From: an uncultured Actinomycetota bacterium
GTDB lineage: Bacteria; Actinomycetota; Actinomycetes; JAHEKZ01
Direction of reading: 5' to 3'
DNA length: 64,000 nt
Assembly: GCA_963712425.1 (NCBI GenBank)
Contig: CAVQHW010000004.1
Coordinates: forward strand, 216,670 to 280,669
The position numbers and the translations under genes were made by a program. How positions within the stretch are numbered: position 1 is the stretch's first letter; each line of letters opens with the position of its first letter. Below are positions 16,674 through 57,676 of the stretch, one piece after another. Under the pieces are notes generated by a model. It was not told the origin of the DNA and made no database searches. It saw only the letters and a list, made by a program, of their open reading frames with translations.

Positions 16674-16792
16674 AGCGCGCTGGTCCCACAGAGGCCGAGC
16701 GACCTCCCGAACTTACCTGGCCATCGAGAGATTTGCGCTAGGCCGGTAGCGTTTCGGCTCCGTGGCGTGATCGTTGGTGGAGGTGGGTCGCT

Positions 16793-17497: not shown

Positions 17498-17557
17498 CCC
17501 CGCACTGAGCGGGGCCCTACGATCGTGGCGACTCACACCTCGACCGCTGGAGTTGGC

Positions 17558-18322: not shown

Positions 18323-18323
18323 C

Positions 18324-18800: not shown

Positions 18801-18803
18801 GGG

Positions 18804-20090
18804 CTAAGGCACGTCGTCTGCCGCAGCAATCTCTTGGCGGCTGATGCCGAGCAGGAACAAGATGCTGTCGAGGTACGGCACGTTGACCGCGGTATCGGCA
18901 GCCTGCTGCACGACGGGTTTGGCGTTGAACGCGACACCGAGGCCAGCGGCCTCAAGCATGTCGAGGTCGTTCGCCCCGTCACCGATGGCGACGGTCTGGG
19001 CGAGCGGAACCGAGGACGCCAAGGCGAACTCACGCAGCGCCTTCGCCTTGGCGGCGCGATCGACAATGGGCTCGACCACCTCGCCGGTGAGGCGGCCATC
19101 GGCCACCTCGAGTCGGTTGGCTATGGCGTAGTCAAGCCCGAGTTCACGCTTCAGGTGATTCGTCACAGCCTCGAAACCACCGCTCACGATGCCGCACTGG
19201 TAGCCGAGCCGGTGGAGGGTGCGGATGAGAGTTCTTGCCCCCGGGGTCAGGACGACATCACGAGCTACCTGCTCCAGTGCGCTCTCATTAAGCCCCGCCA
19301 GGAGTCTCACCCGCCTCCGAAGTGACTCCTCGAAATCGATCTCGCCCCGCATCGCGGCGGCGGTGATCTCGGCGACCTCCGGCTCGCACCCGGCGTGCGC
19401 TGCCAGCATCTCGATGACTTCGCCTTGGATCAGGGTGGAATCGACATCCATCACGACAAGGCGCTTCGCGCGCCGGTGCAGCCCGGCCGGTTGAACAGCC
19501 ACATCAATGCCAGCCGCGGCGGCCTCGATGGCCAGTCGACTTCTGAGGAGCTGGTGTTCGGCGCCCGACACATGCAGCTCGATGGCAGTGACCGGGTACG
19601 CGGCGAGCCGTTCAATGTTCTCGATGTTGCCGCCACACAGCGCGATGGTGCTCGCGGCGATCGCGAGCGCGCCTGGACGCAGGGGTGACCCGAGGATGGT
19701 GACGTGCGTCTCGGCGCCGCTGAGCACCCCTTCGGCCGCGGGTCGGCGCTCGTGCGTCAGTGACAACCCCATGCCCGTCACCACGCGCATGGCGGTCTGC
19801 TCGATCGCGCTCAACGTCCGCTCGAGGTCGTGCTCGCCGTCATGTGCCGAGGGGTCAGGGACCATGACCGAAGCGAGAATCAACTGACCGCTTGTGACGA
19901 CCTGCTCAACGTCGAGAACGATGACGGGCAACGTGGCCATAGTGCTGAAGAAGGTGCGGCTGACACCGGGACGGTCGGGCCCTGAGATTGTGAGAAGCAC
20001 GGCCGTGCCAGAGATCGTCACCTCGGTCGGTAGGGGTGCCTGGTCAGCCGCTGCGGGGGTCGAGACTGACGACGCGCTGACCTCACTCAT
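18804..20090 (-). CDS. serB: Phosphoserine phosphatase SerB with N-terminal ACT domains
   Basis: 428 aa with HAD motifs (VVMDVDSTLIQGE, GDGANDL). The N-terminal ACT-like duplication matches SerB2 architecture. Confidence 0.88.
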   Translation of the reverse strand: MSEVSASSVSTPAAADQAPLPTEVTISGTAVLLTISGPDRPGVSRTFFSTMATLPVIVLDVEQVVTSGQLILASVMVPDPSAHDGEHDLERTLSAIEQTAMRVVTGMGLSLTHERRPAAEGVLSGAETHVTILGSPLRPGALAIAASTIALCGGNIENIERLAAYPVTAIELHVSGAEHQLLRSRLAIEAAAAGIDVAVQPAGLHRRAKRLVVMDVDSTLIQGEVIEMLAAHAGCEPEVAEITAAAMRGEIDFEESLRRRVRLLAGLNESALEQVARDVVLTPGARTLIRTLHRLGYQCGIVSGGFEAVTNHLKRELGLDYAIANRLEVADGRLTGEVVEPIVDRAAKAKALREFALASSVPLAQTVAIGDGANDLDMLEAAGLGVAFNAKPVVQQAADTAVNVPYLDSILFLLGISRQEIAAADDVP

Positions 20091-20102
20091 GGCCCAGCCA
20101 CG

Positions 20103-20918
20103 CTACCGCCGTCGCTCCGAACCGTTGAGGGCGCCATTCCAAGCAGCTGCATGGGCCGATCTCGCAGCTACCGCCACCTGAGCGAACGTCGACGCTCGGG
20201 CCCCCATCTCGTGAGCGGTGCGACTGCCACCCGGATCGGTCATGACGAGGTCGAGCATCTCGAGCACCCGCAGGCTTCGGGCTGCCAGCCGGGTGGCGCG
20301 CTCGGTGGCCCCAGGCGGTAGCACCGGCATATCGCTCCACCCCTGTCTGATGTCGGCGGCGTCGTCACGCCATTGGGCAACGTCGAGACCGTCTAGGGCC
20401 TCGACGGCGTCGTGGAGCGCTTCGAGAAGGGCACGGTCAGCCTCGCTGACGGTGTCGAACGACACGAGACCGTGCCCATCGGCGTCCTGCTCGAGAAGTA
20501 GTAGGTGAGACCCGTGGTCATCTGGGCTGGAGTGCTCGAGTGAGGGCACCATCGCGCACGGGTGACCATCGACACTGACCAGGGCGGCTCCCTGCTCGAT
20601 GGCCGTGGAGCGCAGCGCGAGCGGTCCAGGAACCCCGGCAGCGTCAGCGGGCGCGGCGGGTACGTAGCGCCACCCGGTGATGCCCTGTTGCCGCCACCGG
20701 TGCATGGCGATGGCGAGGCCGTCGATCTCGTCCGCGCCTTCTTTTCTGACCCGCGGCGTGACGCGCAGCCCTTGCAGCACGTCCAGAGCTTGCTCGACAC
20801 CGACAACGCCGCGCATGGCCGCTGTTGTCCAGGCCGCGTTCGCCGCCGCTGCGGCTAGGAGCTTCGTGCGCACGTGTCCACCGTAGGGGCCAGGTTCGAA
20901 GCTTGCGGCGCTCGGCAC
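20103..20918 (-). CDS. Hypothetical protein, co-oriented with serB 13 nt upstream of it
   Basis: A 271-aa ORF with no recognisable motifs and high Ala/Asp content. Coding potential is inferred from its length and its tight spacing to serB. Confidence 0.4.
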   Translation of the reverse strand: MPSAASFEPGPYGGHVRTKLLAAAAANAAWTTAAMRGVVGVEQALDVLQGLRVTPRVRKEGADEIDGLAIAMHRWRQQGITGWRYVPAAPADAAGVPGPLALRSTAIEQGAALVSVDGHPCAMVPSLEHSSPDDHGSHLLLLEQDADGHGLVSFDTVSEADRALLEALHDAVEALDGLDVAQWRDDAADIRQGWSDMPVLPPGATERATRLAARSLRVLEMLDLVMTDPGGSRTAHEMGARASTFAQVAVAARSAHAAAWNGALNGSERRR

Positions 20919-20933
20919 CGTAGGTTGGGGTGC

Positions 20934-21726
20934 GTGCCCGTGCTCGAGTTGTCAGACGTCACCGTCGTCAGGGGTGGTGCTCGAATTCTTGACCGGGTGA
21001 GTTGGACGGTTGAGGACGACGAACGGTGGGTGATCCTTGGCCCCAACGGTGCTGGCAAGACCACGTTGCTGCAGATCGCCTCGTCACGCATGCATCCCAC
21101 GCAAGGGCGTGCGGAGATTCTTGAAGAGCGCCTCGGGGCGGTTGACGTCTTCGAGCTCAGGCCCCGTATTGGGTTGGTGAGCGCCGCATTCGCAGAGACG
21201 ATTCCCAGCGAGTGAGCGGGTGCTCGACCTAGTGATGTCAGCCGGCTACGGCGTCACCGGTCGCTGGCGGGAACGCTACGTGGCTATGGACGAACAACGG
21301 GCAGCTGGGCTGCTGGCTCGGCTGGGGGTGGCAGGGCTTTCGGATCGACTGTTCGGCACGCTGAGCGAAGGCGAGCGCAAGCGAGTGCAGATTGCGCGGG
21401 CACAGATGACCGACCCCGAACTGCTGATCCTTGACGAACCGGCTGCGGGCCTCGACCTGGGTTCGCGAGAGGACTTAGTCGGACGCCTGTCTCGCGTCGC
21501 TGAGGATCCGACCGGCCCAGTCGTGGTGCTCGTGACGCACCACGTCGAAGAGATTCCTCCTGGCTTCACTCATGCGCTGCTGATGCGTTCTGGACAGGTT
21601 GTCGCGGCCGGACCAGTCGCCGACGTCGTCACGACGCCATGGCTGACTGCGACGTTCGGCTTGCCACTGCTGGTGTCTGAGCATGAGGGCCGCTACTTCG
21701 CCCGTGCCCTGATGCCTCCGCGTTAG
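20934..21726 (+). pseudogene. ABC transporter ATP-binding protein interrupted by a +1 frameshift near 21205-21215 (Rv3041c-like)
   Basis: Walker A (GPNGAGKTT) and the Q-loop end at ...AETIPSE* (stop at 21213-21215). The signature LSEGERKRV, Walker B LILDEPAAGLD and the H-loop continue in the +1 frame from 21216 (SERVLDLVMSAGYG...). Confidence 0.75.
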
Positions 21727-21735
21727 CGCGCCGGC

Positions 21736-22949
21736 TCACACAACGAGCCCGGTGCCCCAGGGCAGCGGCAGCACGTTGACGTCCGACCCGACCTGCAACG
21801 GTTCACGGCCCGGGGGAACGACGACGACCACATCGGCAACCGCGAGCCCCGACAGCATCGCCGGACCGCGTCGCACTGCTGGGTGCACTCGTCCCTCGGC
21901 AATCTGGGCAGGTATGAGTCGGTGGGCGCTCGGGGAGGTCTCAACCGGTTCAGCAAGCGCACGTCGGATCGTGCGAGCGGTCGCGTGATCGCGCTCGTCG
22001 CTGCGTCCAGCTAAGGCAGCCAGAAGTGGTTCACCGAGGGTCAACAAGCCAGAGACTGCCGCTAGCGGGTTGCCCGGAAGGGCCACCAAGAATCGATCGT
22101 CGTCAAGCGCGGCCAGCTTCATTGGGTGCCCCGGCCGCACTGCGACACCGTCGACCAACCACGTGCCACCGAGCGACTCGACAGCGGCACGGACGTGATC
22201 GGCCGGACCACTCGAAGTGCCACCGGTCGTGATGATGACGTCGGACGCACGCTGTTGCGATCGCATCGACGGTGAGATCGAGTCGATCCACGACCCGCGT
22301 GATGACGGAGAGGTCGCCGTGGATCGAGCGAATCCACCCTGGAAGCTGCGGAGCGAGTGCATCTCGCACCTGGCCGTCCTGTGGTACTCCGCCGTCGATC
22401 AGCTCATCGCCGAGGATGAGCACGCTCACTGTCGGACATGGCACGACGCCCAGCCGGTCGTGACCGGCCGCTGCCGCTAGGCCGAGTGCTGGGGGAGTGA
22501 GCACCTGCCCAGCGCGAAGGATCACCTCGCCGGCTCGCACTTCTTCGCCCGCCTTGCGGACATCGGTACCTGGGGCGAGGGCGTCAGCATCGGGGGCTAA
22601 GTGCAGCCGTCTCGCCGTCGTGCACTCCGCGTTCGCTTCGCAGCACCGCCGCACCGGGCGGAACCATCGCCCCGGTGCTGATGGTCAGCGCTTCACCGGC
22701 GGCGAGCTGCTTCTGCGCCTCACCGGCCCTGATCTCGCCGACGACGCGCCAGGGTCCGTGCCGCTCACCGCCCAGCCGTCCATCGCGGAGGTGTCGAACG
22801 ACGGAAGATCGACCATCGACGTGACATCTGCGGCGAGCACGAGGTCGCGCGCTTCTGTCAGCGTCAGTGAGGTGTCAATCGCAACCCGGTCACGTGCGCG
22901 CCGCTCCCCGGCGTCGGAGGCCCGCTGACGTGCCTCAGGCCATGCCACG
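21736..22949 (-). pseudogene. moeA: Molybdopterin molybdotransferase MoeA disrupted by three frameshifts
   Basis: The N-terminal motif DLPSFDTSAMDGWAV is in one frame (ORF 22685..23008). TGAMVPPGAAVLRSE follows in a second frame. GTDVRKAGEEVRAGEVIL...LILGDEL returns to the first frame (ORF 22103..22654). ASDVIITTGGTS to the C-terminus is in a third frame (ORF 21736..22362). Confidence 0.75.
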
Positions 22950-23081
22950 TCATGAGTCACGTCATCGACGCTATCGGAGCAGGAGTCGTAGCCCGAGTGA
23001 AATCCCATTGCTTCCGTTCCACGCAGTAACGAATCGGAGGCATTACCCGTCGTTGGTCACCGGGACGGTTACGCTGAGCCC

Positions 23082-23556
23082 ATGCCGGAATGGGGATGGT
23101 GGGTTCTCGGAGCGCTCTTGTTGCTGGGCGTTGAAGCGCTCACGCTCGACCTCATCTTCGCCAGCCTCGCACTGGGAGCAGTTGTCGGTGCGATCGTCGC
23201 CGCGCTCGGGTGCACCAGTGCTGGCTCAGGTGCTGGCGGCCGTCGGCACCGCGTTGCTGTCACTGTTCCTGCTGCGGCCCATCGGTGTGCGGTTGCTGCG
23301 CACTGATGGCGGTCACACCAACGTCGATGCTCTGATCGGTGCTCACGCACTGGTCATGGAGCGCGTTGACACCCGTACCGGACGCGTGAAGGTCAGCGGC
23401 GAGATCTGGTCGGCGAGAGCACGGCGTCCGGGTATCGAGTTTCAGGCGGGCACCGATGTTGTGGTGACGTCGATCGACGGCGCTACTGCCGTCGTTGATG
23501 AGCAGCAAGGGGCCGCCGGTCTTGGCGCTCCGACGTCCGGCACAACAGGGGAGTAA
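23082..23556 (+). pseudogene. NfeD-like membrane protein (partner of SPFH) with a 1-nt frameshift near 23211
   Basis: The N-terminal TM segment MPEWGWWVLGALLLLGVEALTLDLIFASLALGAVVGAIVAALG is in frame 0. The continuation APVLAQVLAAVGTALL... and the C-terminal OB-fold region (RVKVSGEIWSAR) are in frame +1. Confidence 0.7.
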
Positions 23557-23559
23557 CAC

Positions 23560-24444
23560 GTGGAGGACTACACGGGCTGGATCGTCATCGCGATCGTCGC
23601 CCTTTTCGGGCTCATCGTTCTGGCACGGGCCATCCGGATCATTCCGCAGGCAAGCGCTGGCATCGTTGAGCGGCTGGGGCGATACCACCGCACGCTGAAT
23701 GCTGGGCTGAACGTCGTGGTGCCGTTCATCGACCGGGTACGTCCGCTGATCGATCTGCGCGAACAGGTTGTCTCGTTCCCGCCGCAGCCGGTGATCACGG
23801 CTGACAACTTGGTCGTCAGCATCGACTCCGTCATCTACTTCCAGCCGACCGACCCCAAGGCGGCGACCTATGAGATCGCCAACTACATCCAGGCGATCGA
23901 GCAGCTCACCGTCACGACGCTGCGTAACGTCGCAGGTGGCATGGACCTCGAGCGCACGCTGACGTCGCGTGAAGAGATCAACATGCAGTTGCGCGGCGTC
24001 CTCGACGAGGCGACTGGCAAGTGGGGTATCCGCGTCAACCGCGTCGAGATCAAGGCCATCGACCCGCCCGCAACAGTGCAGCAGGCGATGGAGATGCAGA
24101 TGCGTGCCGAGCGCGAGAAGCGCGCGACGATCCTCAACGCCGAGGGCATTCGCCAGTCGGCGATCCTTACCGCAGAGGGCAGCAAGCAGGCTGCGATCCT
24201 GACGGCAGAGGGCGACGCGCGCGCCGCGATCGTTCGGGCCGAGGGTGAAGCGACGGCGATCCAGACCGTGTTCGACGCCATTCACCGCGCCGACCCCGAT
24301 CCGAAACTGTTGGCCTACCAGTACTTGCAGGCGCTGCCTCAAATCGCTGCTGGCCCGTCGAACAAGATGTGGATCGTTCCCGCTGAGTTGTCGGCGGCCG
24401 TCAGCCAGCTCGGTGAGGCGTTCCGTAGCAAGCCTGCTGAGTAG
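23560..24444 (+). CDS. SPFH/band 7 (stomatin/prohibitin-like) protein
   Basis: 294 aa. N-terminal TM helix, then an SPFH domain (GIVERLGRYHRTLNAGLNVVVPFID...) and a C-terminal Ala/Glu coiled coil. It sits 4 nt after the nfeD stop. Confidence 0.85.
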   Translation: MEDYTGWIVIAIVALFGLIVLARAIRIIPQASAGIVERLGRYHRTLNAGLNVVVPFIDRVRPLIDLREQVVSFPPQPVITADNLVVSIDSVIYFQPTDPKAATYEIANYIQAIEQLTVTTLRNVAGGMDLERTLTSREEINMQLRGVLDEATGKWGIRVNRVEIKAIDPPATVQQAMEMQMRAEREKRATILNAEGIRQSAILTAEGSKQAAILTAEGDARAAIVRAEGEATAIQTVFDAIHRADPDPKLLAYQYLQALPQIAAGPSNKMWIVPAELSAAVSQLGEAFRSKPAE

Positions 24445-24462
24445 TTCGTCCCCATGAGGGGC

Positions 24463-25623
24463 TCAGGCCGCCGGGTTCTCGACCACAGGAACGGGTTCGT
24501 TGAAGCGTCGTGCAATGCCTCCGGCGACGCCGATGACCATTTGCACGTACCAGTCGGCGTGGTTGTAGTGCCATAGGGCGTTGTACAGGGCGCGCGGCCC
24601 CACGCCGGCTCCGTTCGCGCAGAGGTAGTTGGCGGCGCTGTAGATGGCGTCTGCCGGGTTCCAGATGTCGGCAACCCCATCGCCGTTGCCGTCGATGGCG
24701 TAGGCGGCGAACGTGCTCGGCAGGAACTGCATCGGGCCCATGGCGCCAGCGGAGGACGGGCCGGTGTTGCTGCCGTGGCCGCTCTCGACCTGGCCGATGG
24801 CCGCCAGTACTGGCCAGGCCAGTCCGGGGCAGGTCGTCGCTGCCGCTTGGTACAGGGCGAGGTACGACTTCGGGATTCCGCTGACGGTCACGTCAGACGA
24901 TGCCGAGTTCGCTGCGGCAGCCGCTGCGGCGCGTTCGGCCTCGATCCGTGCTTGAACCCGTTCGGCTTGGGCCAACTCGCGCGCTTCGGCGTCCAGCGTC
25001 GCGAGAATCTGTTCTTGCTCGGCCAGCAAGGCATCCAGTCGGTCATAGGCGGACTGCACGTCGGCAATCACCGTCATCGACTCTTGACTCGCGACGTCTT
25101 CGTGTGCCGCAAGCTGTTCACTACGGGCGGCTGCCGTCGACTGAACATCAGAGGCGTTAGACAGCATCGACACGACTTCGGTCGACAGCTTCCAACGGGC
25201 GGCAAACTCGCTCGGGCTGCCTGACGTCAGCACCCCCTCGAGCATCGCTAGCGACCCACCTGACTGCTCAAGCAGCCTCACTGCCTCGGCCTGTTCACGC
25301 TCGGCGATGAGAGCGGCATGAGCCGCCGCCTGGGCGTTGGCATCAGCAGTGACTTCCGACGTGACCGCCCCAGCAACATCGTCTAGAGCTTGCTGATAGT
25401 CGCGACGCGCGACCTGAACCTGCTCTTGCAGCTCCGCCACCCGTTCTGCTGCGACATCTGCCCGAGCCCGCACTTCGTCGGCGGTTTCGGCCCCTGCCGC
25501 GCTGGGGATGACCGCGACGAGGCAGACAGATAGCAGCACCGACAGCGCTGACGCCACAGGCGCAAGGCGCACTCGTGTGCGAGCAGCAGCGGCTGCCCCG
25601 CACTGCCCTTGCGTCGGGGTCAT
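24463..25623 (-). CDS. Secreted lytic transglycosylase with an N-terminal coiled coil
   Basis: Signal/TM segment (LSVLLSVCLVAVIPSAAGA), about 200 aa of Ala/Glu/Gln-rich coiled coil, and a C-terminal SLT-like domain (GQVESGHGSN...GAMGPMQFLPSTFAAYA...AANYL). Confidence 0.75.
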   Translation of the reverse strand: MTPTQGQCGAAAAARTRVRLAPVASALSVLLSVCLVAVIPSAAGAETADEVRARADVAAERVAELQEQVQVARRDYQQALDDVAGAVTSEVTADANAQAAAHAALIAEREQAEAVRLLEQSGGSLAMLEGVLTSGSPSEFAARWKLSTEVVSMLSNASDVQSTAAARSEQLAAHEDVASQESMTVIADVQSAYDRLDALLAEQEQILATLDAEARELAQAERVQARIEAERAAAAAAANSASSDVTVSGIPKSYLALYQAAATTCPGLAWPVLAAIGQVESGHGSNTGPSSAGAMGPMQFLPSTFAAYAIDGNGDGVADIWNPADAIYSAANYLCANGAGVGPRALYNALWHYNHADWYVQMVIGVAGGIARRFNEPVPVVENPAA

Positions 25624-25682
25624 ACCGTCACCATCGGCCGGGGCCAGATGTGTCTTGATCGTCCAGGTGGCAGGGTGATGCC

Positions 25683-26438
25683 GTGATCGATGGGTGGGAG
25701 TGGCTGGCCGTCTTTGCGGCAGCCGTCGCGGCAGGCGGCATCAACGCCCTGGTCGGTTCAGGCACCTTGGTGACCTTCTCGACCCTCGTGACCCTCGGCG
25801 TCCCGCCCCTGACCGCCAATGTGTCGAACACGGTGGGCCTCGTGGCCGGCTCAGTTGCCAGCAGCTGGGGGTACCGCAAGGAGCTGGCTGAGCAGCCGGA
25901 GCGGATTCGCCGGTATGTGCCGGCCTCGCTGCTCGGTGGGCTGACGGGGGCGGTCTTGCTGCTTGTCTTGCCCGCCAGCGCCTTCGAAACCATCGTGCCT
26001 GTGCTGGTGGCGTTGGGCGTCGTGCTGGTGGCGATCCAGCCATGGATAGCCGCCAAGCTGTCGGTGCCTCACAACACCCATGTCGTTGGCGGCGTGGTGG
26101 CCTTCGTCTTGGTCTACCTCGTGGGGATCTATGGCGGGTACTTCGGAGCTGCCCAAGGTGTCCTGCTGATCGCCATTCTCGGCGCCCTTGTCGACGCGAA
26201 CTTGCAGCGGGTGAATGCACTCAAGAATCTCTTGGCGGCCGTCGTCAACGCTGTCGCTGCGGTGTTATTCATCTTCGTGGCCGACGTCGATTGGGGCATT
26301 GCGCTCGTCATGACAGTCGGAGCCGCGCTAGGAGGCTTTCTCGGGGCTCACTACGGACGCAGGCTGCCTGCGTTGGCCCTGCGTCTGGTGATCGTCTGCG
26401 TCGGCGTCGTGGCCGTCGTGGTGTTGGTGCGGGCATGA
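25683..26438 (+). CDS. TauE/SafE (DUF81) sulfite/anion exporter family membrane protein
   Basis: 251 aa and polytopic, with the duplicated GxGGG-type motifs of TauE/SafE (GINALVGSGTLVTF...). Confidence 0.75.
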   Translation: MIDGWEWLAVFAAAVAAGGINALVGSGTLVTFSTLVTLGVPPLTANVSNTVGLVAGSVASSWGYRKELAEQPERIRRYVPASLLGGLTGAVLLLVLPASAFETIVPVLVALGVVLVAIQPWIAAKLSVPHNTHVVGGVVAFVLVYLVGIYGGYFGAAQGVLLIAILGALVDANLQRVNALKNLLAAVVNAVAAVLFIFVADVDWGIALVMTVGAALGGFLGAHYGRRLPALALRLVIVCVGVVAVVVLVRA

Positions 26439-27238
26439 GCGTTGAACAGGTGGTCGACGCAGATGACCCGCGCGCTGCGGATTACCGCAACCTGACCGAC
26501 ATCGGTCTGCGCAAGCGGTGGGAACCCGAACACGGCCTCTTCATGGCTGAGAGCCACCAGGTGATCGAGCGAGCACTCGCTGCCGGGTATCCGGTCCGCT
26601 CGGTGCTGACGACCGAGAGGTGGCTGGAGGCGGTCGAGCGGCTGACGTTGCCTGCGGGGACGCCGGTGTTCGTGGGGGACGAGGCGACCATCAACGCGAT
26701 CACGGGATACCGCGTCCATCGTGGTGCGCTGGCCGCGATGTCACGGTTGCCGCTGCCAAGTGTCGACGAAGTGGTGGTTGGTGCGCGGCGTCTCGTCATC
26801 CTCGAGGGGATTGTCGACCATACGAACGTTGGCGCAATCTTCCGGAGTGCGGCGGGGTTGGGCTTCGATGCCGTACTGGTTGACCCCACGTGCGCCGACC
26901 CGCTCTACCGGCGATCCGTGCGGGTGTCGATGGGGGCGGTGTTCTCCGTTCCCTGGACCCGGGTGAATCCGTGGCCGGATGGCCTCGCGCGTCTCAAAGC
27001 GGCGGGCTGGACCATTGCGGCGCTGACACCTGGCCCGGATTCGATCAGCGTTGACGAGCTTCGCGCTGACAGTCACGCCAGACTGGCACTGATTCTGGGC
27101 ACAGAAGGGGCGGGCATTTCCGCAGAGGCGCAAGCACTCACCGACCAACGCGTCCGGATTCCGATGGCGGCAGGAGTGGACTCGTTGAACGTGGCCGCGG
27201 CGGCCGCCGTGGCCTTCTACGCGACGCACTGGCAGTAG
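26435..27238 (+). CDS. SpoU/TrmH family RNA 2'-O-methyltransferase
   Basis: SPOUT motifs (LILEGIVDHTNVGAIFRSAAGLG..., LALILGTEGAGIS, IPMAAGVDSLNVAAAAAV). The ATG overlaps the TauE stop (ATGA). Confidence 0.82.
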   Translation: MSVEQVVDADDPRAADYRNLTDIGLRKRWEPEHGLFMAESHQVIERALAAGYPVRSVLTTERWLEAVERLTLPAGTPVFVGDEATINAITGYRVHRGALAAMSRLPLPSVDEVVVGARRLVILEGIVDHTNVGAIFRSAAGLGFDAVLVDPTCADPLYRRSVRVSMGAVFSVPWTRVNPWPDGLARLKAAGWTIAALTPGPDSISVDELRADSHARLALILGTEGAGISAEAQALTDQRVRIPMAAGVDSLNVAAAAAVAFYATHWQ

Positions 27239-27262
27239 CGAGGCCTGTGATCGGCGATTCAC

Positions 27263-28862
27263 TCAGGAGTCATGGCCGTCGATAAGGGTGGTGACGACCT
27301 CGATCGACGCAATCTCTTCGTCTGGAGTCAGGCGGAGGTCGGACGCCAGCCAGGTGAGGTCTGCCGCCTTGCCCGGTTCGAGCGATCCGATCTGGGTCTC
27401 CATGCCGATGGCGTAGGCCGCATCGATGGTGTGCGCGAAGAGCGCCTCCTCAAGAGTGAGGCGATGGTGCGCTCCCAGCACAACGCCTCCGAGGGTCCGC
27501 CTCGAGAGTGCATTGCGCGATGGTTGTCAGTGGCTGGTAGCTCGCGACATCTGAGTCGCTGCTCAGCACTACGCGAACGCCACGCTCCAACATCGATCGA
27601 TTCGGCTGCAACTCATGCGCATGGTCACCCAGGGACTGTAGATACTCGTCGCCGAAGTCATGGAGGTACGACGGCTGCAGCACAGCGGTGACGTTCAGCG
27701 CCGCCATGCGTTCAATGCCACGTTCCAGGGGCAGACCGGCGTGCTCAATCCTTGGTCGCGCATCGGATCGGGGGAACGCTCTCGCGGCGGCTTCGTAACC
27801 GTCCAGGACAGCGGCGATGGCTGCGTCGCCCTGTGCATGCACTGCGACGCGCCAGCCAGCTGCCCACGCGCACTCGATCAGAGTGCTGAGCTCGGCCGGT
27901 TCGTGAAAGTACGAGGTGGTTTGGCCTTTGGCGTCGACCTCGGGGCTGAACGCCGCGGTGCCACCGGTGAGGCTGCCGTCGGCGTAGATCTTGAGGTGAC
28001 CAATCGACAACCAGTCGTCTCCGAATGGTCCAACGAGTCCGAGTGCGTTGAAGTCATCGAGCTGATGCGACAACGGCATGCACACCGTACGGACGCCGAG
28101 CACGCCTTGTTCTCGGGCTGCTCGATAGCCGCGCAGTTCCCGTGAGGTGACCTGCGCGTCCGCCACGCAGGTGAGGCCGGCAGCTCGGTAGGCCTTCGAG
28201 GCTCGCGCTACCGACGCGATGAGACTCTCTGTCGTGCTCTTGCTGTGGAAGTTGGGGCCATGACTCCCGATGTCCACCTCTGCGGGCACGACCGCTCCAC
28301 ACGCCGCGTCCAGGCACAAGCCAGTGAGCCGACCATCGTGGTCACGGACGAAGCGACCCCCGTCGGGGTCAGGCGTCGCATCGTCTACACCCGCCTGTCG
28401 AAAGACGAGAGAGTTGACGAGGACGTTGTGCCCGGACGTGTGAAAGAACTGAAGGGGATGGTCGCCCGCTGCAGCATCGAGCTCGGCCAGAGTAGGCAAC
28501 GCGTACTTGCCGTTATCAAAGCCAAAGCCTGCGATCGTCTGTCCAGGTGCAAGCTCGGCAGCCGCGTCCGCCACAACTCGTAACAGCGCATCGGGGGAGT
28601 CCACGCCGGGAAAGCGAAGGTCGAGTGATGCAAGCGACTCACCGGTCGACAGAAAGTGGTTGTGAGCATCGATGAGACCGGGCAGCAACATGCCGCCAGC
28701 GATGTCCTCTTCGAGAGCCGTCGGCCACGCGTCGCGCAGCTCTGCGAGCGGCCCAACGCCGACAACGGTGGCACCGCGAATCGCGACACTCTCGGCCCAG
28801 GGAGCCTGGCGCACCCCCGTGAAGACGGTTCCGCCGCCAAAGATCCGCACTCGGTCATCCAT
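27263..28862 (-). pseudogene. Amidohydrolase-3 family metal-dependent hydrolase with a frameshift near 27500-27515
   Basis: A 470-aa ORF holds the amidohydrolase core (HxH near the N-terminus: IDAHNHF). The conserved C-terminal 72 aa (LTLEEALFAHTIDAAYAIGMETQIGSLEPGKAADL) is in another frame. Confidence 0.72.
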
Positions 28863-28905
28863 GCCCAGATCATGCCTGACGCCATCCGGATGACAAGATG
28901 GCGGA

Positions 28906-29292
28906 ATGACTGGGGCGCTCGAACGCGACGAGAGCGGGATACCGCGTGCGCGACTCTTGCCAGATCGACACGGGCTTGTGGTGCGGCTACAGGCAGAGCC
29001 GGGTGGGCGTCCGGCACTGCTCGACGCGTTGCACCGCTACATCGACCGGCTCGCCGACGAGCCCGCCACCGAGTTCTTTTGCATCTCGCTCGATCCCGAC
29101 GAGCCCGAGGTCGTGTGGTTGCACGAGTGGTTTCAGGGCGAGGACGGCATCGCGGCGCACCGGGCGGCACCTGGTTTCACCGAACTGATGGCCGAACTGA
29201 ACGTGGTGTTGAGCAGCGCGCCTGGCGTCATGCGGTTTGTGCCGTTGCGCATGCACCTTGCCGAGGGCATCTGGCAGGACGAAGCGCTGTAG
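28906..29292 (+). CDS. Antibiotic-biosynthesis-monooxygenase (ABM) domain protein
   Basis: 128 aa with an ABM-like ferredoxin-fold pattern (ALLDALHRYIDRLADEPATEFF...PEVVWLHEWFQGEDGIAAHRAAPGF). Confidence 0.55.
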   Translation: MTGALERDESGIPRARLLPDRHGLVVRLQAEPGGRPALLDALHRYIDRLADEPATEFFCISLDPDEPEVVWLHEWFQGEDGIAAHRAAPGFTELMAELNVVLSSAPGVMRFVPLRMHLAEGIWQDEAL

Positions 29293-29312
29293 CTCAGTCG
29301 GCGGGCGTTGCG

Positions 29313-30114
29313 TCAGCGTCCGAAGGGTCGTACGACGGTGCCCTTGATCGGCGTCGACCTACCCCACATCGACGCGATCCGTACTTGCGGACGCACCGCC
29401 TCGAGTACCCGGCCGTTGCCCAGGTAGATGCCCATGTGACTGATCGAGCCCGATGGGCCAAAGAAGATCAGGTCGCCGCGCTTGCGTTCGGTGAGCGGGC
29501 GCTTGGGCAGCCCGGAGTCGAAGATGCGCGACGCCGTGGGGTAGTCCTGACGCTGGTGCTTGAAGGTCGTGACGCCAGGTAGCACGCGTCCGCCGGCATA
29601 CATCGCCTGGAGCGTGAGCCCCGAGCAGTCATAGCCGATCGGACCAGCAGCTCCCCAGATGTACGTGGTGCCGAGCTGTTGCCGTGGCCCAGCGAATCAT
29701 GGCGTCTTTGCGTTTGGCGGGGGAACGGGGCGCAGAGACCTTCGGCTGCACCGTGAACCGGTCCATGCAGAACGAGCGCTGCATTCCCAGCTCTTGCCAC
29801 GTGGCTCGATTGACGCGTCCGGTCACATTCAGATCCTTGCGACGCTGGAATCCACGCACCGCCTGGTAGGTGTCTTCCTGATAGCGGTCGAGCTCATGTG
29901 TCGTTCCGAGCCGTCGCTGTACGAGCGCTACCTTCGCGCCGGCCCATTCGCGTCCGAGCACGATGCACCCCTTGGCAACCGGCACCTGCGTCGACAGGTA
30001 GGGGTTGTTGTCGCCGGATCCAGCGGATGTCGGGGTAGCGCTCACGAGGGTCGCGGCGAGCGCCACGGTGAGCACGGCGGCGGCCGAGGCGGTTCTAGTG
30101 GACGAGCGAGTCAT
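29313..30114 (-). pseudogene. Secreted NlpC/P60 peptidoglycan endopeptidase with an N-terminal PG-binding domain and a frameshift near 29650-29665
   Basis: ATG 30114 is followed by a signal peptide and a PG_binding_1-like segment (VQRRLG...YQAVRGFQRRKDLNVTG) ending ...RWATATARHHV...*. The catalytic part (QQLGTTYIWGAAGPIGYDCSGL...ISHMGIYLGNG) is in the +1 frame. Confidence 0.75.
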
Positions 30115-30144
30115 GCACACATCATCGGCCACCGGGGTGGGGAA

Positions 30145-31701
30145 GTGGAGCAGCGTGGCACCCTGGCGGCTGTGACAAGCACAACGACGAGCAGCCGAGC
30201 GTGGCCATCCTGGTTCGACCGTGATCGTGCCGCCAAGATCGTTGACCCCCACTTTGACCGGGTGTTTGAGCGGCAGGCAGCCCCCGGGATCGCCTACGGC
30301 GTGGTGCTCAACGGGCGCCTGGTCCACAGTCGAGGGCTGGGCGCGAGCATGGTTGGTGAGGGCGAGGATGCGGCCGTCCCAAACCCCCACACCGCTTTCC
30401 GCATCGCCTCGATGACGAAGAGCTTTTCGGCGGCAACGGTCTTGTCGTTGCGTGACGAGGGTGCGCTCCATCTCGAGACGCCAGCCGCCGACCTGGTTCC
30501 AGAGGTCGGGTCGAGCGGTCACCCCTGGGCCCGGCAAGTCACGGTGCGGCACCTGCTGACGATGGGCGCCGGGTACCTCACCGACGACCCGTGGGGCGAC
30601 CGGCAACAGGATCTGCCGATCGACACCTTCCGGAATTTGCTTGCCGGTGGCGTCCGACCCGCGCTGCCTCCAGGTGATCGGTTCGAGTACTCGAACCTGG
30701 GGTACGCGCTGCTCGGGCTGGTGATCTCGGCGGTGTCGGGGCAGAGCTACGTGGACGCTGTGACGAAGCGCGTTCTCGAGCCGGTCGGGCTGCACGAGAC
30801 GGGGTTCACTACCGAGGTTGCTGCTGCGTCCCTCGCCAAGGGCTACGTGCGGCGCCTCGACGGCTGGGTCGAGGAACCCATCGCAGCGCCTGGTGCCTTC
30901 TCGCCGATGGGCGGTCTGATCAGCACGGTGTCCGACCTTGCGCGATGGGTCGGGTTCCTTGAGTCTCAGGGCACTCGCTCAGAGGGGGTAGTGCCCTTGA
31001 GCGAGCTCAGCGTGCGCGAGATGCAACGCACGCAGCGTCTCGTGACAGCGAGCGTCGCGCGCGACGCCGCCGAGGCCCCTGACGTCATCGGATACGGCTG
31101 CGGGTTGTTCGAAGAGTTCCGGCCATGGGGTCGCAGTGTCAGCCACTCAGGCGGATACCCCGGGTTCGGATCGCACATGCGGTGGCATCCGGCGTCCGGC
31201 CTCGGCCTCGTCGCGCTGGCCAACGGCACCTACGCACCGATGTCGACGGTCTCGCTAGCGGCGATGGCTGACCTGGTGCGAGAGCTGGGTGCTCCCATCA
31301 CCCCAGACGGCATCGCACTGCCGGGGCTGGACGCCGCGGTCAAGGCGGTTCAGGCGTGGTTGGCAGCGGCGGACCCCGATGGTGCTGAGGCAGTGCGGTT
31401 GCGCAGTCTGTGGGCAGACAACGTCGAGCGAGACCTGCCGTGGGCCGAGCGACTGGCGGCGTTGGCCGCCCTTCGCGCCGAGTGCGGGCCCCTGTCACCG
31501 GTGGCGGGGTCTGAGAAGCGTCACTCACCTGGCTCGCTCACATGGGACATGACCGGTCAGGACGCGGCTGGGGCCGCAGAAGCCCGGGTTCGGGTCACCG
31601 TGATGGTGGCCCCTCACGACCCGGATCTCGTGCAATCGGTCACCCTGCGCAGGCTCAAGACCGACGAGCCTCCAGCCGCTCTGACAGCGGACGTCCACTG
31701 A
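30145..31701 (+). CDS. Beta-lactamase-family serine hydrolase (class C-like esterase or penicillin-binding-protein homolog)
   Basis: SxxK motif (SMTKSF), YSN-like motif (YSNLGY) and a C-terminal extra domain. A likely GTG start at 30145 is preceded by GGGGTGGGGAA. The ORF-track N-terminal 160 aa is antisense to nlpC and was rejected. Confidence 0.78.
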   Translation: MEQRGTLAAVTSTTTSSRAWPSWFDRDRAAKIVDPHFDRVFERQAAPGIAYGVVLNGRLVHSRGLGASMVGEGEDAAVPNPHTAFRIASMTKSFSAATVLSLRDEGALHLETPAADLVPEVGSSGHPWARQVTVRHLLTMGAGYLTDDPWGDRQQDLPIDTFRNLLAGGVRPALPPGDRFEYSNLGYALLGLVISAVSGQSYVDAVTKRVLEPVGLHETGFTTEVAAASLAKGYVRRLDGWVEEPIAAPGAFSPMGGLISTVSDLARWVGFLESQGTRSEGVVPLSELSVREMQRTQRLVTASVARDAAEAPDVIGYGCGLFEEFRPWGRSVSHSGGYPGFGSHMRWHPASGLGLVALANGTYAPMSTVSLAAMADLVRELGAPITPDGIALPGLDAAVKAVQAWLAAADPDGAEAVRLRSLWADNVERDLPWAERLAALAALRAECGPLSPVAGSEKRHSPGSLTWDMTGQDAAGAAEARVRVTVMVAPHDPDLVQSVTLRRLKTDEPPAALTADVH

Positions 31702-31907
31702 CCTCCGACCCGCCTTCAGGGTCGCGTGGTAGCGTCAGCGGCGGTTGCAGGACTTTTCCGTCGTCCCGTTTCGCCTGATCTCCACTCGTGGAGAGCTGCC
31801 GAAGCGCCCGCGGAAAGACTCGCGGGCATTCTCGGGCACTCCCCGTGGTGCCGCAGCCCCAGCCACACAACAGGTGCGGTTGGAAGCTTCAAGAGTTGGA
31901 GAGTTTC
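31702..31907 (+). promoter_or_regulatory. Long 5' leader/promoter region of cspA (about 200 nt non-coding)
   Basis: No credible ORF in this region. GGAG sits 8 nt upstream of the cspA ATG. Major cold-shock protein genes typically carry long structured 5' UTRs. Confidence 0.35.
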
Positions 31908-32111
31908 ATGGCAGTAGGCAGCGTTAAGTGGTTCAACGCTGAAAAGGGTTACGGATTCATTGAGCAAGACGGCGGCGGCGCCGACGTCTTTGTTCACTTC
32001 TCGGCCATCACGATGGACGGGTACCGCACCCTTGAAGAGAACCAGCGCGTCGAGTTCGAAATCACTCAGGGCCCGAAGGGTCCGCAGGCCGAGAACGTTC
32101 GGCTTGCCTGA
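31908..32111 (+). CDS. cspA: Cold-shock protein CspA family
   Basis: 67 aa with RNP1/RNP2 motifs ([18 protein letters not shown]). Confidence 0.92.
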
Positions 32112-32158
32112 TCTGAAGGTCTGGTGACATCGGGTTCGCCCGGTTCACAGAGGCTTCG

Positions 32159-32206
32159 CGAAGGACCCGGTAGCTCACCTCAGTGGTGGGTCTGCCGGGT
32201 CCTTCG
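32159..32206. terminator. Bidirectional intrinsic-terminator-like hairpin between convergent cspA and the S51/CysRS-C gene
   Basis: A 12-bp perfect stem (CGAAGGACCCGG ... CCGGGTCCTTCG) with a 24-nt loop that itself can pair (CACC/GGTG). No T-tract, as is usual in high-GC actinobacteria. Confidence 0.55.
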
Positions 32207-32209
32207 TCG

Positions 32210-33487
32210 TTAGTCAGAGTTTGCGGCGCCAGGGCTGGGTGCGAGTGACCAACTGACGCCCTCGGGGGTGTCTTGCACCTCGACGCCACCAGCGCCGAGC
32301 ACGTCACGAATGAGGTCACTGGTGGCGTAGTCCTTCTGATCACGTGCGGACGCGCGTGCCTCGAGCAGCGGCTCGACAAGTGGCGCGACGATCGTCGCTG
32401 GATCGGTGGTGCCAATCCGCGCCAGTTCACCGAGTCGGACGACCATGGCGCGCAGCTGCCTTCGCGCACGGTCGATCGCGTCGCTTTGCAGGGTGTCAGC
32501 CGACCACGCCTGAATGGCGTCGTCGATTGCCAGCACGGCGGCGACCGCGGCGTCCACGTCGCGTGCTTCAAGTGCGCTATCGAAGGCATCGCGATGCGCA
32601 GCGACGTCACGTTCGAGAGATGGGGCAGATGCCTCCGGTGATGCCTTCGGTTCTGCTGGTGCTGCTGACCGAGGCGTGGCCTCAGCCGGCGCGGGCCTGT
32701 TGGCGCTGAAGACCGCTTTGAAGTCGGCCACCGTCATGACCGTTCCGGAAGGGATCACCTCGGCGCTGCCTTGTCGACGCACTGTCACGCCGCCGGTGCC
32801 AGAGACCTCGACCCGTTCGGCACCCAGGTCGATCATCAGCGCGGTGTGCTCGTCGACCCCCAGAACGGCGGCGCCGTCGTCGAGTTGCTGCTCCATCGCC
32901 GCGAGTCGATCGAGGCCGAGGTAGCAGAACCGGGTGTCGTAGGTTCCCCCCTCGGCGTTGTCGAAGTGGGGGACAACCGCCAGCGTGAGGTCAAGAAACT
33001 CCGCCAGGAGGTCAAGCCCCTGAACCCATGCAGGCTCGGCGCCGACCTTGTAGATCTCGTAGACCGGAAGTGCCCATCTCCCTGCCGTGACGGCGGCGGC
33101 GCTCCCCAGCGTGACCGTGCCGCCGCGTCGCACCACATCCGAGATTGCTCCCGCCATAGGCGTTCCTTGCCATTGACCCAACGCATACGTGGGGCTACCT
33201 GGCCCAGCGAAGAGCCAGGACGCCTGACTCACCTCAGCTAGCGCCTGATCGTGACCCGTGTCGTCACGCGAGCGCCAACGGGCCGCGCGGACGGTGTGCC
33301 CGACGGAGTCGGCGAAGTAGCGAAGGGTGCGGTGGGTGAGGTCATCAGCGTTGACCTGGAAGCCGTAGGGAGTATCGAGCATCACGGCTGGGCCTGAGCC
33401 TGAGCTGGCGAGCACCGCACGGTGGGTCTTGACCATTGCAGGCGCGGTTTCGCCTGACCCCATCAATACGATTCGGCCGTCAGTCAC
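32210..33487 (-). CDS. Fusion protein: N-terminal peptidase-S51/cyanophycinase-like domain, Pro/Ala-rich linker, and a C-terminal cysteinyl-tRNA-synthetase-type anticodon-binding (DALR-2-like) helical domain
   Basis: The N-terminus (IVLMGSGETAP...GSAAAVTAGRW) resembles class-I glutamine-amidotransferase-like S51 hydrolases. The C-terminus (RDVDAAVAAVLAIDDAIQAW ... RASARDQKDYATSDLIRDVLGAGGVEVQDTPEGVSW) matches the CysRS C-terminal R-x-ARK-KDW-AADxxRDxLxxxGI-LEDxPxGTxW pattern. Confidence 0.6.
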   Translation of the reverse strand: MTDGRIVLMGSGETAPAMVKTHRAVLASSGSGPAVMLDTPYGFQVNADDLTHRTLRYFADSVGHTVRAARWRSRDDTGHDQALAEVSQASWLFAGPGSPTYALGQWQGTPMAGAISDVVRRGGTVTLGSAAAVTAGRWALPVYEIYKVGAEPAWVQGLDLLAEFLDLTLAVVPHFDNAEGGTYDTRFCYLGLDRLAAMEQQLDDGAAVLGVDEHTALMIDLGAERVEVSGTGGVTVRRQGSAEVIPSGTVMTVADFKAVFSANRPAPAEATPRSAAPAEPKASPEASAPSLERDVAAHRDAFDSALEARDVDAAVAAVLAIDDAIQAWSADTLQSDAIDRARRQLRAMVVRLGELARIGTTDPATIVAPLVEPLLEARASARDQKDYATSDLIRDVLGAGGVEVQDTPEGVSWSLAPSPGAANSD

Positions 33488-33505
33488 TGCGCGTCCTTGG
33501 CTTGC

Positions 33506-34363
33506 TCACTGTGCCGATCCTTGCACGCGATCGATCAAGGCGAACACCTGCTCTGCGACAACGTCTGGCTGCTGCAGGTGAATGTCGTGATGGGCTTCCG
33601 GGTACCAACGTGCAGTGGCGTCTGGCAGCTGCTCGAGCGCCTGGTCGACATCCTCGGACGTCGCCTTACCGGCCACGATCAGGCTCACCGGTACGTTGAC
33701 GCGGCCGTAGTTCGTTGCCGGATCGTCTTCCCACAGCGAGTGCACGATGCTCCGATGGTGCTCGAACGAGAGCCGATTGCGGACGCGGCCGTCAACGACC
33801 TCGAGATTGCCCATGATCGCGTCCACCGAATGTGCTGGCCATCCTCGAACAAAGCCCTGAATACGTGCTAGCGCCTGCTCGGGGGTGGCATCGCCGAAGC
33901 TCGGTGGCTTGAGTGCTGCCCAGCACTCGTCGAAATCGGCGAACCGTGGCTGCAGGTGGATCCAGCCACCGTCGACGCACATGACACCGCCCCAGAGCGC
34001 GCTCTGCGCGGCACTGTGAATGGCGACGTTGGCACCCCACGACTGGCCGACGACTAGCGGGCCGGACGCCTGCCACCCCAAAGCAGCGGCGAGCGCAGTC
34101 ACATCATGGGCTGCCTGCGCGGTCGTGTAGCCCGTCGAAGGGGCCTCGGAGCGGCCGTGTCCGCGCAGATCGACTGCCGCAACAGCGTGGCCTCGGGCGG
34201 CCAACGTCTCGGCGACCTGGCGCCACAGCAGCGCGTTGGAGGCGAGCCCGTGCATCAGGAGCACCGGGCGTCTGTTGCCTTCGTGAGATCTCACGGCAAG
34301 TGAGGTTCCGTCGGGGAGCGCCACCATGGTCGGGGGCCACCACGTGTCGTCCGGCCAGGTCAT
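33506..34363 (-). CDS. Alpha/beta-hydrolase fold protein
   Basis: 285 aa with an HGxxS(N) oxyanion region (LLMHGLASNALLW), a nucleophile elbow (VGQSWGANV) and a C-terminal His. Confidence 0.75.
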   Translation of the reverse strand: MTWPDDTWWPPTMVALPDGTSLAVRSHEGNRRPVLLMHGLASNALLWRQVAETLAARGHAVAAVDLRGHGRSEAPSTGYTTAQAAHDVTALAAALGWQASGPLVVGQSWGANVAIHSAAQSALWGGVMCVDGGWIHLQPRFADFDECWAALKPPSFGDATPEQALARIQGFVRGWPAHSVDAIMGNLEVVDGRVRNRLSFEHHRSIVHSLWEDDPATNYGRVNVPVSLIVAGKATSEDVDQALEQLPDATARWYPEAHHDIHLQQPDVVAEQVFALIDRVQGSAQ

Positions 34364-34535
34364 GGGGTGGCCTTGTGCCGTACGGCGTCGATGAGGGATG
34401 CCGTACGTAGCGAGAGCGTCGATGACGGGACGTAGGCGCTTTCATCGCCATCGATCGCCTTCGAAACGTGCTCCAGCATCAGTTGGTACGCGTCGCAGGG
34501 GGCGAACTTCTCGCTCCACCGCTCGCCACCGTCGG

Positions 34536-35325
34536 TCAGAGGTCCAAGCTGGACTCGGCATGCCAGTTGGTGAATGCGCTGCCGACCCATGTCACCGACA
34601 GATCGTCTGCCGCCACTCGCAGGGCCTGATGCTCAGGGCTGATGAACGACGCCTCGACGGACGCCGTGGCGATCTCGGTCTTCAGCGTGGCTGTCGTGCT
34701 GAGGTCGGCGCCTCGATCATTGAGGACAACATCGGCATCCGTCACCGAGCAGTCGTCACCACCCCAGTCGACAACTGGTGCGAGCACATAGGGGCCGAGG
34801 TCGAGCAATGCTCCACCACCCTTGGAGGCATCCAGCCGGTAGTTGGCATCTGGGACGCCATTGAAGGTGAATCGCGCGTCGATGTCGTGCACGCGCCCGT
34901 GAGCCCCGTTGCCCAGGAGGGCGTCGGCCCGCCGATGGCGTGGATGCCAACGCACCCAGGTGGCTTCGACTAGCAGCTTGCCGTGGGCCTCTGCCGCAGC
35001 GAACGCGCGCTGGCAGTCCTCCGCGCTCATCGCGAGTGGCTTCTCGCACAACACGTGCTTGCCGGACTCCAAACTCGCGAGAATCCAGGGCACGTGGAGG
35101 TCGTTGGACAGTGCGATGTACACCGCGTCGACCGTCGGATCGTTCACGAGGTCTCGATAGGTGTCGTGTACGCGTTCTGGTTCGAGAGCCTGCCGCCCGT
35201 TCGGGGTCACGTGCCGCGGCGGCGTGAAGCGTGACGCCGGACGCGGCGTGCGCGGCGGGGGCCAATGCCTTCGTCGCAATGAAACCAGCGCCGAGGAATC
35301 CCCAACGAACAGCGTGGTGTGTCAC
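34536..35325 (-). pseudogene. Gfo/Idh/MocA-family NAD(P)-dependent oxidoreductase with a frameshift near 35185-35200
   Basis: The N-terminal Rossmann segment MTHHAVRWGFLGAGFIATKALAPAAHAASGVTLHAAAARDPERAA is in one frame. The continuation LEPERVHDTYRDLVNDPTVDAVYIALSNDLHVPWILASLESGKHVLCEKPLA... is in another. Its start abuts the stop of the upstream 554-aa gene. Confidence 0.7.
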
Positions 35326-50293: not shown

Positions 50294-50296
50294 CGA

Positions 50297-51064: not shown

Positions 51065-51120
51065 GAAGCAATCCTCCTGAAGGTCGTGCAACACCCTAGA
51101 GGGGAGCGGTGTGCGGATGC

Positions 51121-52035: not shown

Positions 52036-52084
52036 AGCGGCAGCGTAGGCGTCCCCTCCGACAATGCCCCCGTAGAGTCATAGT

Positions 52085-53263: not shown

Positions 53264-53313
53264 ACACTCGAGCCCATCAGTGCTCCGCGCCAACGCCATT
53301 CCTAGAGGAGTAG

Positions 53314-54273
<960 letters not shown>

Positions 54274-54316
54274 GGTCGAAGGCGTCCTTACTGGACGCGC
54301 TGGACGGAGGTGCGCC

Positions 54317-55969: not shown

Positions 55970-55998
55970 CTGAGGCCGCTGGAGCCTAGGCTGTCAAC

Positions 55999-57656: not shown

Positions 57657-57676
57657 CGCGAGGGAAAGGTGGGCTC

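Follow-up and report, generated by a model that had tools for sequence, protein, structure and literature searches.

Nine small indels clustered in a 14-kb patch break six genes of an uncultured actinomycete and are very probably assembly errors

The window analysed here is a 64,000-bp stretch of DNA from a soil actinomycete that is uncultured and possesses a Pup-proteasome and MshC. Six genes of the window, all lying between 20.9 and 35.3 kb, are out of frame: those for an ABC-transporter ATPase, MoeA, NfeD, a YtcJ-like amidohydrolase, an NlpC/P60 cell-wall hydrolase and a Gfo/Idh/MocA oxidoreductase. We located the breaks by frameshift-aware protein-to-DNA alignment against intact orthologues and by base-level alignment to near relatives. 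These alignments revealed nine breaks (21203, 22250, 22610, 22758, 23214, 27513, 29685, 34540-1 and 35191), all of 1–2 nt; seven are +1, one is +2 and one is −1. The nine events lie within 13,989 of the 64,000 bp, a clustering with P of about 4e-5 in a range test that assumes uniform placement. Both strands are hit, and intact genes are interleaved with the six broken ones inside the patch of about 14 kb.

The relatives used for comparison fall into two groups. The contigs L022, L025, L028 and L111 belong to the same species and come from other metagenomes, with 94–96% nucleotide identity to the window, and L109 and L115 show 83–87%. L022 and L111 are from JGI sample 3300061641 and are 95.6–95.9% identical. 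The nearest references are about 4% diverged and represent other strains, not the same clone. A single-query scan of genome contigs with the ABM protein gave no match, and a scan of genome contigs with the ABM alignment found only relatives of at most 88% identity, which indicates that the collection scanned contains no GTDB representative of the species.

The gene encoding the ABC-transporter ATPase (20874..21726, plus strand) carries an extra T at 21203 (gaT[T]ccc), which moves it from frame 3 to frame 1; here the window has one base more than L022, L109 and L115. It is followed by moeA (21736..23008, minus strand), which encodes molybdopterin molybdenumtransferase and has an extra C at 22250, an extra T at 22610 and a missing A at 22758. 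The moeA sites were found by protein alignment and at the base level against L022, and they are the same in L115; the comparison with L109 also gives the same sites except for 22610, which falls there in a diverged stretch with multiple gaps. In nfeD (23082..23556, plus strand), alignments including L022, L109 and L115 place one extra base at about 23205–23214. The partner of nfeD is an SPFH/Band-7 gene at 23560–24444, and an identical Band-7 protein is encoded by L022.

The YtcJ-like amidohydrolase gene (27263..28862, minus strand) is cut into two fragments by an additional T at 27513 (gcaT[T]gcg), seen in comparison with L022 and L025. It further contains a compensated pair that is specific to the window, namely an extra G at 28043 and a missing T at 28046. 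This gene is an insertion relative to the congeners, and the region is structurally variable. The gene for the cell-wall hydrolase with PG_binding_1 and NlpC/P60 domains (29313..30132, minus strand) has one extra base at 29685, seen against L028 (94% identity), and passes from frame -2 to frame -3. The Gfo/Idh/MocA oxidoreductase gene (34360..35325, minus strand), which JGI relatives annotate as 'xylose dehydrogenase', runs through frames -2, -3 and -2; compared with L111 (95.6% identity), the window carries 2 nt extra at 34540-1 (cAG[AG]g) and 1 nt extra at 35191. Relative to L022 and L025, there are also two intergenic differences, a 1-nt deletion at 27240 and a 1-nt insertion at 29303 (ggc[G]ggc); each could be either a natural variant or an additional error.

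The original prediction had counted eight frameshifts in six genes. The six genes stand, but the number of breaks is nine, as the Gfo/Idh/MocA gene contains a second one at 34540-1. Among the predicted positions in moeA, 22250 was right, whereas the alignments replace 22660 and 22700 by 22610 and 22758. The remaining positions moved from 29655 to 29685 in nlpC/P60, from 27505 to 27513 in the amidohydrolase gene and from 23211 to 23214 in nfeD.

Undoing the nine indels in silico, a repair proposed together with that prediction, restores open reading frames of orthologue size in all six genes. The repaired ABC ATPase has 283 aa, two fewer than the same-species copy (285 aa). Repaired MoeA (423 aa) and NfeD (157 aa) are each equal in length to the same-species copy, and the amidohydrolase (532 aa) equals both P0006 and the L022 copy. 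The NlpC/P60 protein reads unbroken from MTRSS to RPFGR over about 268 aa, and its close relatives in L023 and L024 have 270–276 aa. The repaired Gfo/Idh/MocA protein has about 320 aa (303–320 aa in relatives) and matches P0018 over the full length with 92% identity; one scan of metagenome contigs with the repaired Gfo1 protein found only relatives of at most 51% identity. No in-frame stops or nonsense codons were found in the six repaired frames, and no larger lesions in the six genes. Repaired MoeA shares 98.3% protein identity with the intact copy of the same species; there are 8 nonsynonymous and 28 synonymous differences, and dN/dS is 0.10. Measured against L022, four of the broken genes have a dN/dS of 0.097, and the value for intact genes is 0.094. 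This agreement gives no hint that selection on the broken genes has been relaxed.

Between them, the four same-species contigs lack all nine indels, and the six genes are intact there. L115 agrees with this absence at the five leftmost sites, and L109 at four of these and at 27513. Distant relatives also have intact genes; against L109 and L115 the window is the odd one out at the shared sites, and the orthologues in L004, L005, L007, L009, L022, L110, L111 and L115 are single-frame ORFs. The source contig alone carries the truncated 470-aa amidohydrolase (P0005) and 208-aa MoeA pieces, and the 74-aa NfeD and 96-aa NlpC pieces were found on no other contig on record. Alignment to close relatives, which had also been proposed earlier, thus shows that the indels are private to this assembly.

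The flanks of the patch were assessed by greedy ORF tiling and Pfam profile coverage; a sliding codon-usage frame tracer was dropped, as it was too noisy at this GC. Nearly all flank ORFs with a Pfam match (1–20 kb and 37–64 kb) cover the profile end to end. Three flank ORFs had no significant Pfam match, and the sole poorly covered match, a SixA-like ORF at 18.3–18.8 kb, was full length when inspected. The flank also contains moaA, which is intact. At the base level, the window differs from L112 (97.6% identity, 48953–61394) by one 9-nt in-frame indel and otherwise by intergenic indels only, and no frame-breaking indels were found against L022 (18903–20900) or L115 (83.5% identity, 15880–20900). 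In these three comparisons, the differences are multiples of three in coding sequence and of any length between genes, with 0 frame breaks in 14.4 kb, and they look like natural variation. Both the Pfam coverage and the base-level controls bear out the earlier claim that about 50 kb of flanks are free of frameshifts. We also followed the mismatch rate to the same-species contigs along the sequence, and it showed no jump where the patch begins on the left. With no divergence step at this border, a strain switch or a chimeric assembly path stays hypothetical.

A similar patch exists in the sister contig L109 (ENA ERZ25039510, with a Flye-style name). In L109, clean sequence borders a patch of about 7 kb in which indels whose length is not a multiple of three reach 27 per kb; insertions outnumber deletions (53 versus 25), and 41 of the 53 insertions lie outside homopolymers. 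This patch matches the dense, insertion-biased and non-homopolymer signature of the window, elsewhere in the sequence. Classical Nanopore consensus errors are homopolymer-linked, deletion-biased and genome-wide. Unlike these textbook errors, the indels of the window, from a source platform that we infer, lie in one 14-kb patch and are mostly non-homopolymer insertions. The 'MFD' contigs among the relatives are Nanopore-only Flye assemblies with one round of Medaka polishing (PMC12313526), and the relatives present in both NCBI and ENA are, where traceable to a named record, such MFD Nanopore-only Flye/Medaka contigs. To judge from its length of 425,684 bp and its presence in NCBI and ENA, the source contig presumably comes from a long-read platform. 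Consensus indels of long reads are a known source of frameshifted gene calls under about 40x coverage (PMC9262707). The window resembles the Nanopore and PacBio assemblies and MAGs whose frameshifted gene calls the IDEEL test measures and tools such as proovframe correct (PMC9262707), in that single-base indels are the sole lesions and the fragments sum to a full-length orthologue. Furthermore, accurate same-species assemblies have the genes intact, and related Nanopore-only Flye/Medaka contigs behave alike.

We consider it very probable that the nine breaks are localised consensus or polishing (assembly) indel errors, and neither pseudogenes nor phase variation. This reading is favoured because the lesions are indels only, the frames can be repaired, dN/dS is equal in broken and intact genes, same-species copies are intact, the truncations are private to this assembly and L109 provides a parallel. 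The original prediction offered two options, and the one supported by the indel-only lesions, their repair and the intact same-species copies is its first, poor base-calling or assembly over a localised stretch.

True pseudogenes gather deletions and nonsense mutations, their dN/dS is relaxed, and independent isolates share them. It is unlikely that the nine indels are very recent, strain-specific frameshifts that made six fresh pseudogenes in a dispensable part of the chromosome. The indels are present in the deposited sequence, and a strain-private lesion would be compatible with the sequence, as the references are other strains. The structural variability of the region, with its inserted amidohydrolase gene, and sites unlike classical homopolymer errors also speak for real frameshifts. 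However, the nine indels come with neither a nonsense mutation nor a larger deletion, and nonsynonymous change is not in excess; three indels in moeA would need neutral time, yet the protein retains its high identity to the same-species copy. The events are packed in 14 of 64 kb with intact genes between them, and moaA, outside the patch, is intact. None of the truncated products turned up on another recorded contig, and L109 has its similar patch at a different place. The window is like the reductive pseudogene clusters of the Mycobacterium leprae type in that neighbouring actinobacterial genes are broken on both strands with intact genes between, but it is unlike them in having no nonsense mutations, deletions, relaxed dN/dS or shared lesions.

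Less probable still is a real and very recent burst of insertion mutagenesis over about 14 kb in one lineage, for example by error-prone repair synthesis. If this were true, moeA, nfeD, the cell-wall hydrolase gene and the three other genes would have been lost simultaneously, before any other decay. The events are indeed spatially clustered, of one mutation class and biased to insertions, but no excess of base substitutions was found in the patch compared with its surroundings. A like and denser pattern elsewhere in the related long-read contig L109 argues for the method and not for biology as its origin. We know of no bacterial process that gives only +1 insertions over 14 kb.

Phase-variable loci switch by slipped-strand mispairing in simple-sequence repeats. 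At the nine sites there are no repeat or homopolymer tracts: the run length is 1–2 at the +1 sites, and the sole repeat is the duplicated AG at 34540. As a candidate motif, TGCA occurs close to three of the nine, and the inserted bases are T/A-rich, in a small sample (n = 9). It is scarcely credible that the genes are phase-variable contingency loci, or use programmed ribosomal frameshifts, and are expressed despite the breaks: the sole support is that several genes change frame with sound sequence before and after each break, but repeat tracts are missing, the orthologues in close and distant relatives are single-frame with no conserved frameshift signal, the genes are housekeeping or metabolic and thus atypical for contingency loci, and moeA would require three separate shifts. 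The window shares with slipped-strand contingency loci a disruption by frame-changing indels of 1–2 nt, but its genes are not surface or restriction-modification genes, and its lesions are absent from relatives. The second option of the original prediction, recent decay or phase-variable loci, lacks support, given the small indels as sole lesions, the lack of stops, the equal dN/dS, the intact relatives, the truncations private to this assembly and the lack of repeats.

Returning to assembly error as the preferred reading, the apparently error-free flanks of about 50 kb mean that it requires a special local cause, presumably low sequencing depth or a mixture of strains. The assembly path that was chosen was probably ill supported by reads in this patch, perhaps through a coverage dip or through co-occurring strains that interfered in the structurally variable region. 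A single polishing round with such poor support would have left stray bases, mostly inserted ones.

Taken at face value, the window would be annotated with six pseudogenes, and the evidence says that such calls would be wrong. The organism would then be taken to lack, for example, the final reaction of molybdenum-cofactor synthesis, a peptidoglycan hydrolase and the NfeD protein that partners its SPFH protein. The original prediction had described moeA, the cell-wall hydrolase gene and the SPFH partner as null alleles; given the evidence for an artefact, this is probably false. Long-read metagenome contigs can hold dense local indel patches beside clean tens of kilobases, and genome-wide quality scores can hide such patches because they lie amid clean sequence. 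Artefact and decay can be told apart without reads by indel-only lesions, full-length repair, equal dN/dS and intact same-species copies. In summary, there is no new biology in the six broken genes, and, judging from sequence comparison, the organism itself most probably has intact genes for the ABC ATPase, MoeA, NfeD, the amidohydrolase, the NlpC/P60 hydrolase and the Gfo/Idh/MocA oxidoreductase.

Six genes in the window switch reading frame with strong similarity kept on either side of each break, as revealed by stop-to-stop ORFs, tblastn with intact orthologues and frameshift-aware protein-to-DNA alignment. This agrees with the original prediction, although its count of eight breaks missed a second one in the short Gfo/Idh/MocA oxidoreductase gene, and nine were found. 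Exact positions were obtained by base-level alignment to near relatives. The ABC ATPase gene has an extra T at 21203; moeA has an extra C at 22250, an extra T at 22610 and a missing A at 22758; nfeD has one extra base at 23214; the amidohydrolase gene has an extra T at 27513; nlpC/P60 has one extra base at 29685; and the short Gfo gene (34360..35325, minus strand) has two extra bases at 34540-1 and one at 35191. Some of the predicted coordinates were off by 30-60 nt. Eight breaks are insertions and one is a deletion, with run lengths of 1-2. The nine events lie within 13,989 of 64,000 bp (P ~4e-5 under uniform placement), which upholds the proposed confinement to 20.9-35.3 kb. Where the inserted base can be placed clearly (21203, 22250, 22610 and 27513), it is T, C, T and T, respectively, on the plus strand, in a window of ~65% G+C. 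Three of the nine breaks (22610, 23214 and 27513) have a TGCA at most a few bases away. This could point to base-calling errors that depend on context, perhaps through methylation, for which nine sites are too small a sample.

The window is from an actinomycete and bears the Suf operon and the genes for MoaA, SerB, MshC and Mpa-Dop-Pup-PrcBA-PafA. The gene order at 20.9-35.3 kb is Rv1486c-like, ABC ATPase, MoeA, NfeD, Band-7/SPFH, SLT, TauE, SpoU, YtcJ-like amidohydrolase, ABM monooxygenase, NlpC/P60, class-C beta-lactamase-like hydrolase, CspA, a 425-aa CysS_C-like protein, alpha/beta hydrolase, the short Gfo/Idh/MocA protein and a 554-aa Gfo/Idh/MocA protein. Except for the amidohydrolase, this order is common to ten related loci found through an identical 67-aa CspA. 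The amidohydrolase gene (27263-28862, minus strand) is inserted between the SpoU and ABM monooxygenase genes relative to congeneric contigs L001-L010 and L110, and the close relatives L022, L025 and L023 have the same insertion. This spot is a strain- or species-variable point within the putative error patch. Because of the high G+C, ORF length alone is misleading in the window; spurious long ORFs (29632-30978, minus; 29659-31701, plus) overlap the real divergent genes for NlpC/P60 (minus) and the beta-lactamase-like hydrolase (plus, about 30145-31701).

The key evidence came from exact look-up of the 128-aa ABM protein of the window, which led to contigs from other metagenomes that also bear the amidohydrolase insertion. 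Same-species contig L022 (12.7 kb, from JGI sample 3300061641) matches the window at 95.9% identity over 18903-29542, and its genes for ABC ATPase (285 aa), MoeA (423 aa), NfeD (157 aa) and amidohydrolase (532 aa) are intact. Between the two there are 428 substitutions and ten gaps of one base each: six frame breaks, two intergenic gaps and a compensated pair. This pair, inside the amidohydrolase gene at 28043-28046 (an extra G, with a T missing three bases on), is window-specific against both L022 and L025, and may represent two further consensus errors that cancel in frame. The window's indels are also missing from L025 and L028 (~94% identity), in which the amidohydrolase and NlpC/P60 are intact, and from L111 (JGI sample 3300061641, 95.6% identity), in which the Gfo gene is intact. 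The more distant L109 and L115 (83-87% identity) side with these contigs against the window at its break sites, with site 22610 ambiguous in L109. When the nine indels were undone in silico, as had been proposed, all six genes regained ORFs (283, 423, 157, 532, ~268 and ~320 aa) of the sizes found in the closest relatives.

The nine lesions are indels without exception, and the ~2,000 corrected codons contain no in-frame stop. Comparison of the window with L022 gives a dN/dS of 0.097 in broken genes and 0.094 in intact ones. Even moeA, with three separate indels, shows 8 nonsynonymous and 28 synonymous differences from L022 (98.3% protein identity). On these sequence comparisons, together with the intact same-species copies, the breaks are very probably a feature of the deposited sequence and not of the organism; poor base-calling or assembly was one of the two explanations first offered. 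The pattern behaves like long-read consensus indel artefacts in every sequence-level test; that the source contig itself stems from long reads is an inference. Set against these data, it is improbable that the lesions are genuine mutations of very recent date, and slightly more improbable that a localised mutagenic burst produced them. The other explanation first offered, genuine decay or phase-variable loci, is not borne out. Neutral build-up of indels is unlikely because many nonsynonymous substitutions should accompany it. The 74-aa NfeD and 96-aa NlpC pieces occur on no other contig on record, and those of MoeA (208 aa) and the amidohydrolase (470 aa) are confined to one contig, the 425,684-bp source present in NCBI and ENA; unlike true pseudogenes, the broken genes show neither neutral damage nor a shared lesion. 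Phase variation and programmed frameshifting are excluded, since no repeats or homopolymers were found at the break sites, as contingency loci would have, and orthologues of the broken genes are single-frame everywhere, so that conservation of a frameshift is lacking.

As predicted, the interspersed genes are intact: those for Band-7, SLT, TauE, SpoU, ABM, the beta-lactamase-like hydrolase, CspA, the 425-aa protein, alpha/beta hydrolase and the 554-aa Gfo protein align to orthologues in a single frame by tblastn. The flanks are likewise clean. Nearly all flank ORFs with a Pfam match span the profile end to end, and three further flank ORFs have no significant match. No frame-breaking indel was found at 15.9-20.9 kb by alignment to L022 and L115. 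Against same-species contig L112 (97.6% identity over 48953-61394), the sole indels are one of 9 nt, which keeps the frame, and intergenic ones. These lie at 52962-52973, 57575-57581 and 60878-60976, the 9-nt one in an M50 peptidase gene and those of 1, 7 and 11 nt solely intergenic; this is the expected natural indel pattern, unlike the frame-breaking indels of the patch. The two short contigs L113 and L114, which come from different archives (ENA ERZ27251452; JGI 3300018481), have the same 1-nt deletion in the proteasome beta-subunit gene prcB (window 58155; L113:1541; L114:1525) relative to the window and L112; either the frameshift is real and common to both, or one data set was assembled twice.

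Among the related contigs that, like the source, are in both NCBI and ENA, those traceable to a named record are "MFD" MAG contigs, assembled with Flye from Nanopore reads alone and given one round of Medaka polishing (PMC12313526). Long-read consensus indels are documented to produce frameshifts in gene calls, with ~40-fold coverage required before a sequence is near-finished (PMC9262707). Many genes are fragmented in several of these relatives (L001-L003, L008 and L010). The most telling case is L109 (ENA ERZ25039510 contig_21869). It is clean across the part that is broken in the window, the moeA region included, and bears a ~7-kb patch of its own over the counterpart of window 11-17 kb, a part that is intact in the window; in this patch non-3n indels reach 27 per kb. 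Gene calls are shredded over L109:12100-20400 (homologous to window 10.5-18.8 kb), with MoaA, TldD/PmbA, FabG and SURF1 fragmented. Single-base events in the L109 patch comprise 53 insertions and 25 deletions, with 41 of the 53 insertions outside homopolymers, the same signature as in the window. Thus, indels that are patchy, insertion-biased and non-homopolymer seem to belong to this kind of contig and not to the biology of one organism. A coverage dip or strain interference would be a plausible local cause, given that the patch lies around a site of structural variation, the amidohydrolase gene absent from congeners. Substitution rates against same-species contigs showed no step at the left border that would mark a strain switch.

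In the clean left flank, moaA (12226-13125, plus; radical SAM and Mob_synth_C domains) is intact, which is consistent with a working molybdenum-cofactor pathway and speaks against true loss of moeA. The value of these results is a quality-control warning on the deposited sequence. They also correct the reading of moeA, nfeD and the NlpC/P60 hydrolase gene as null alleles, which is probably false.
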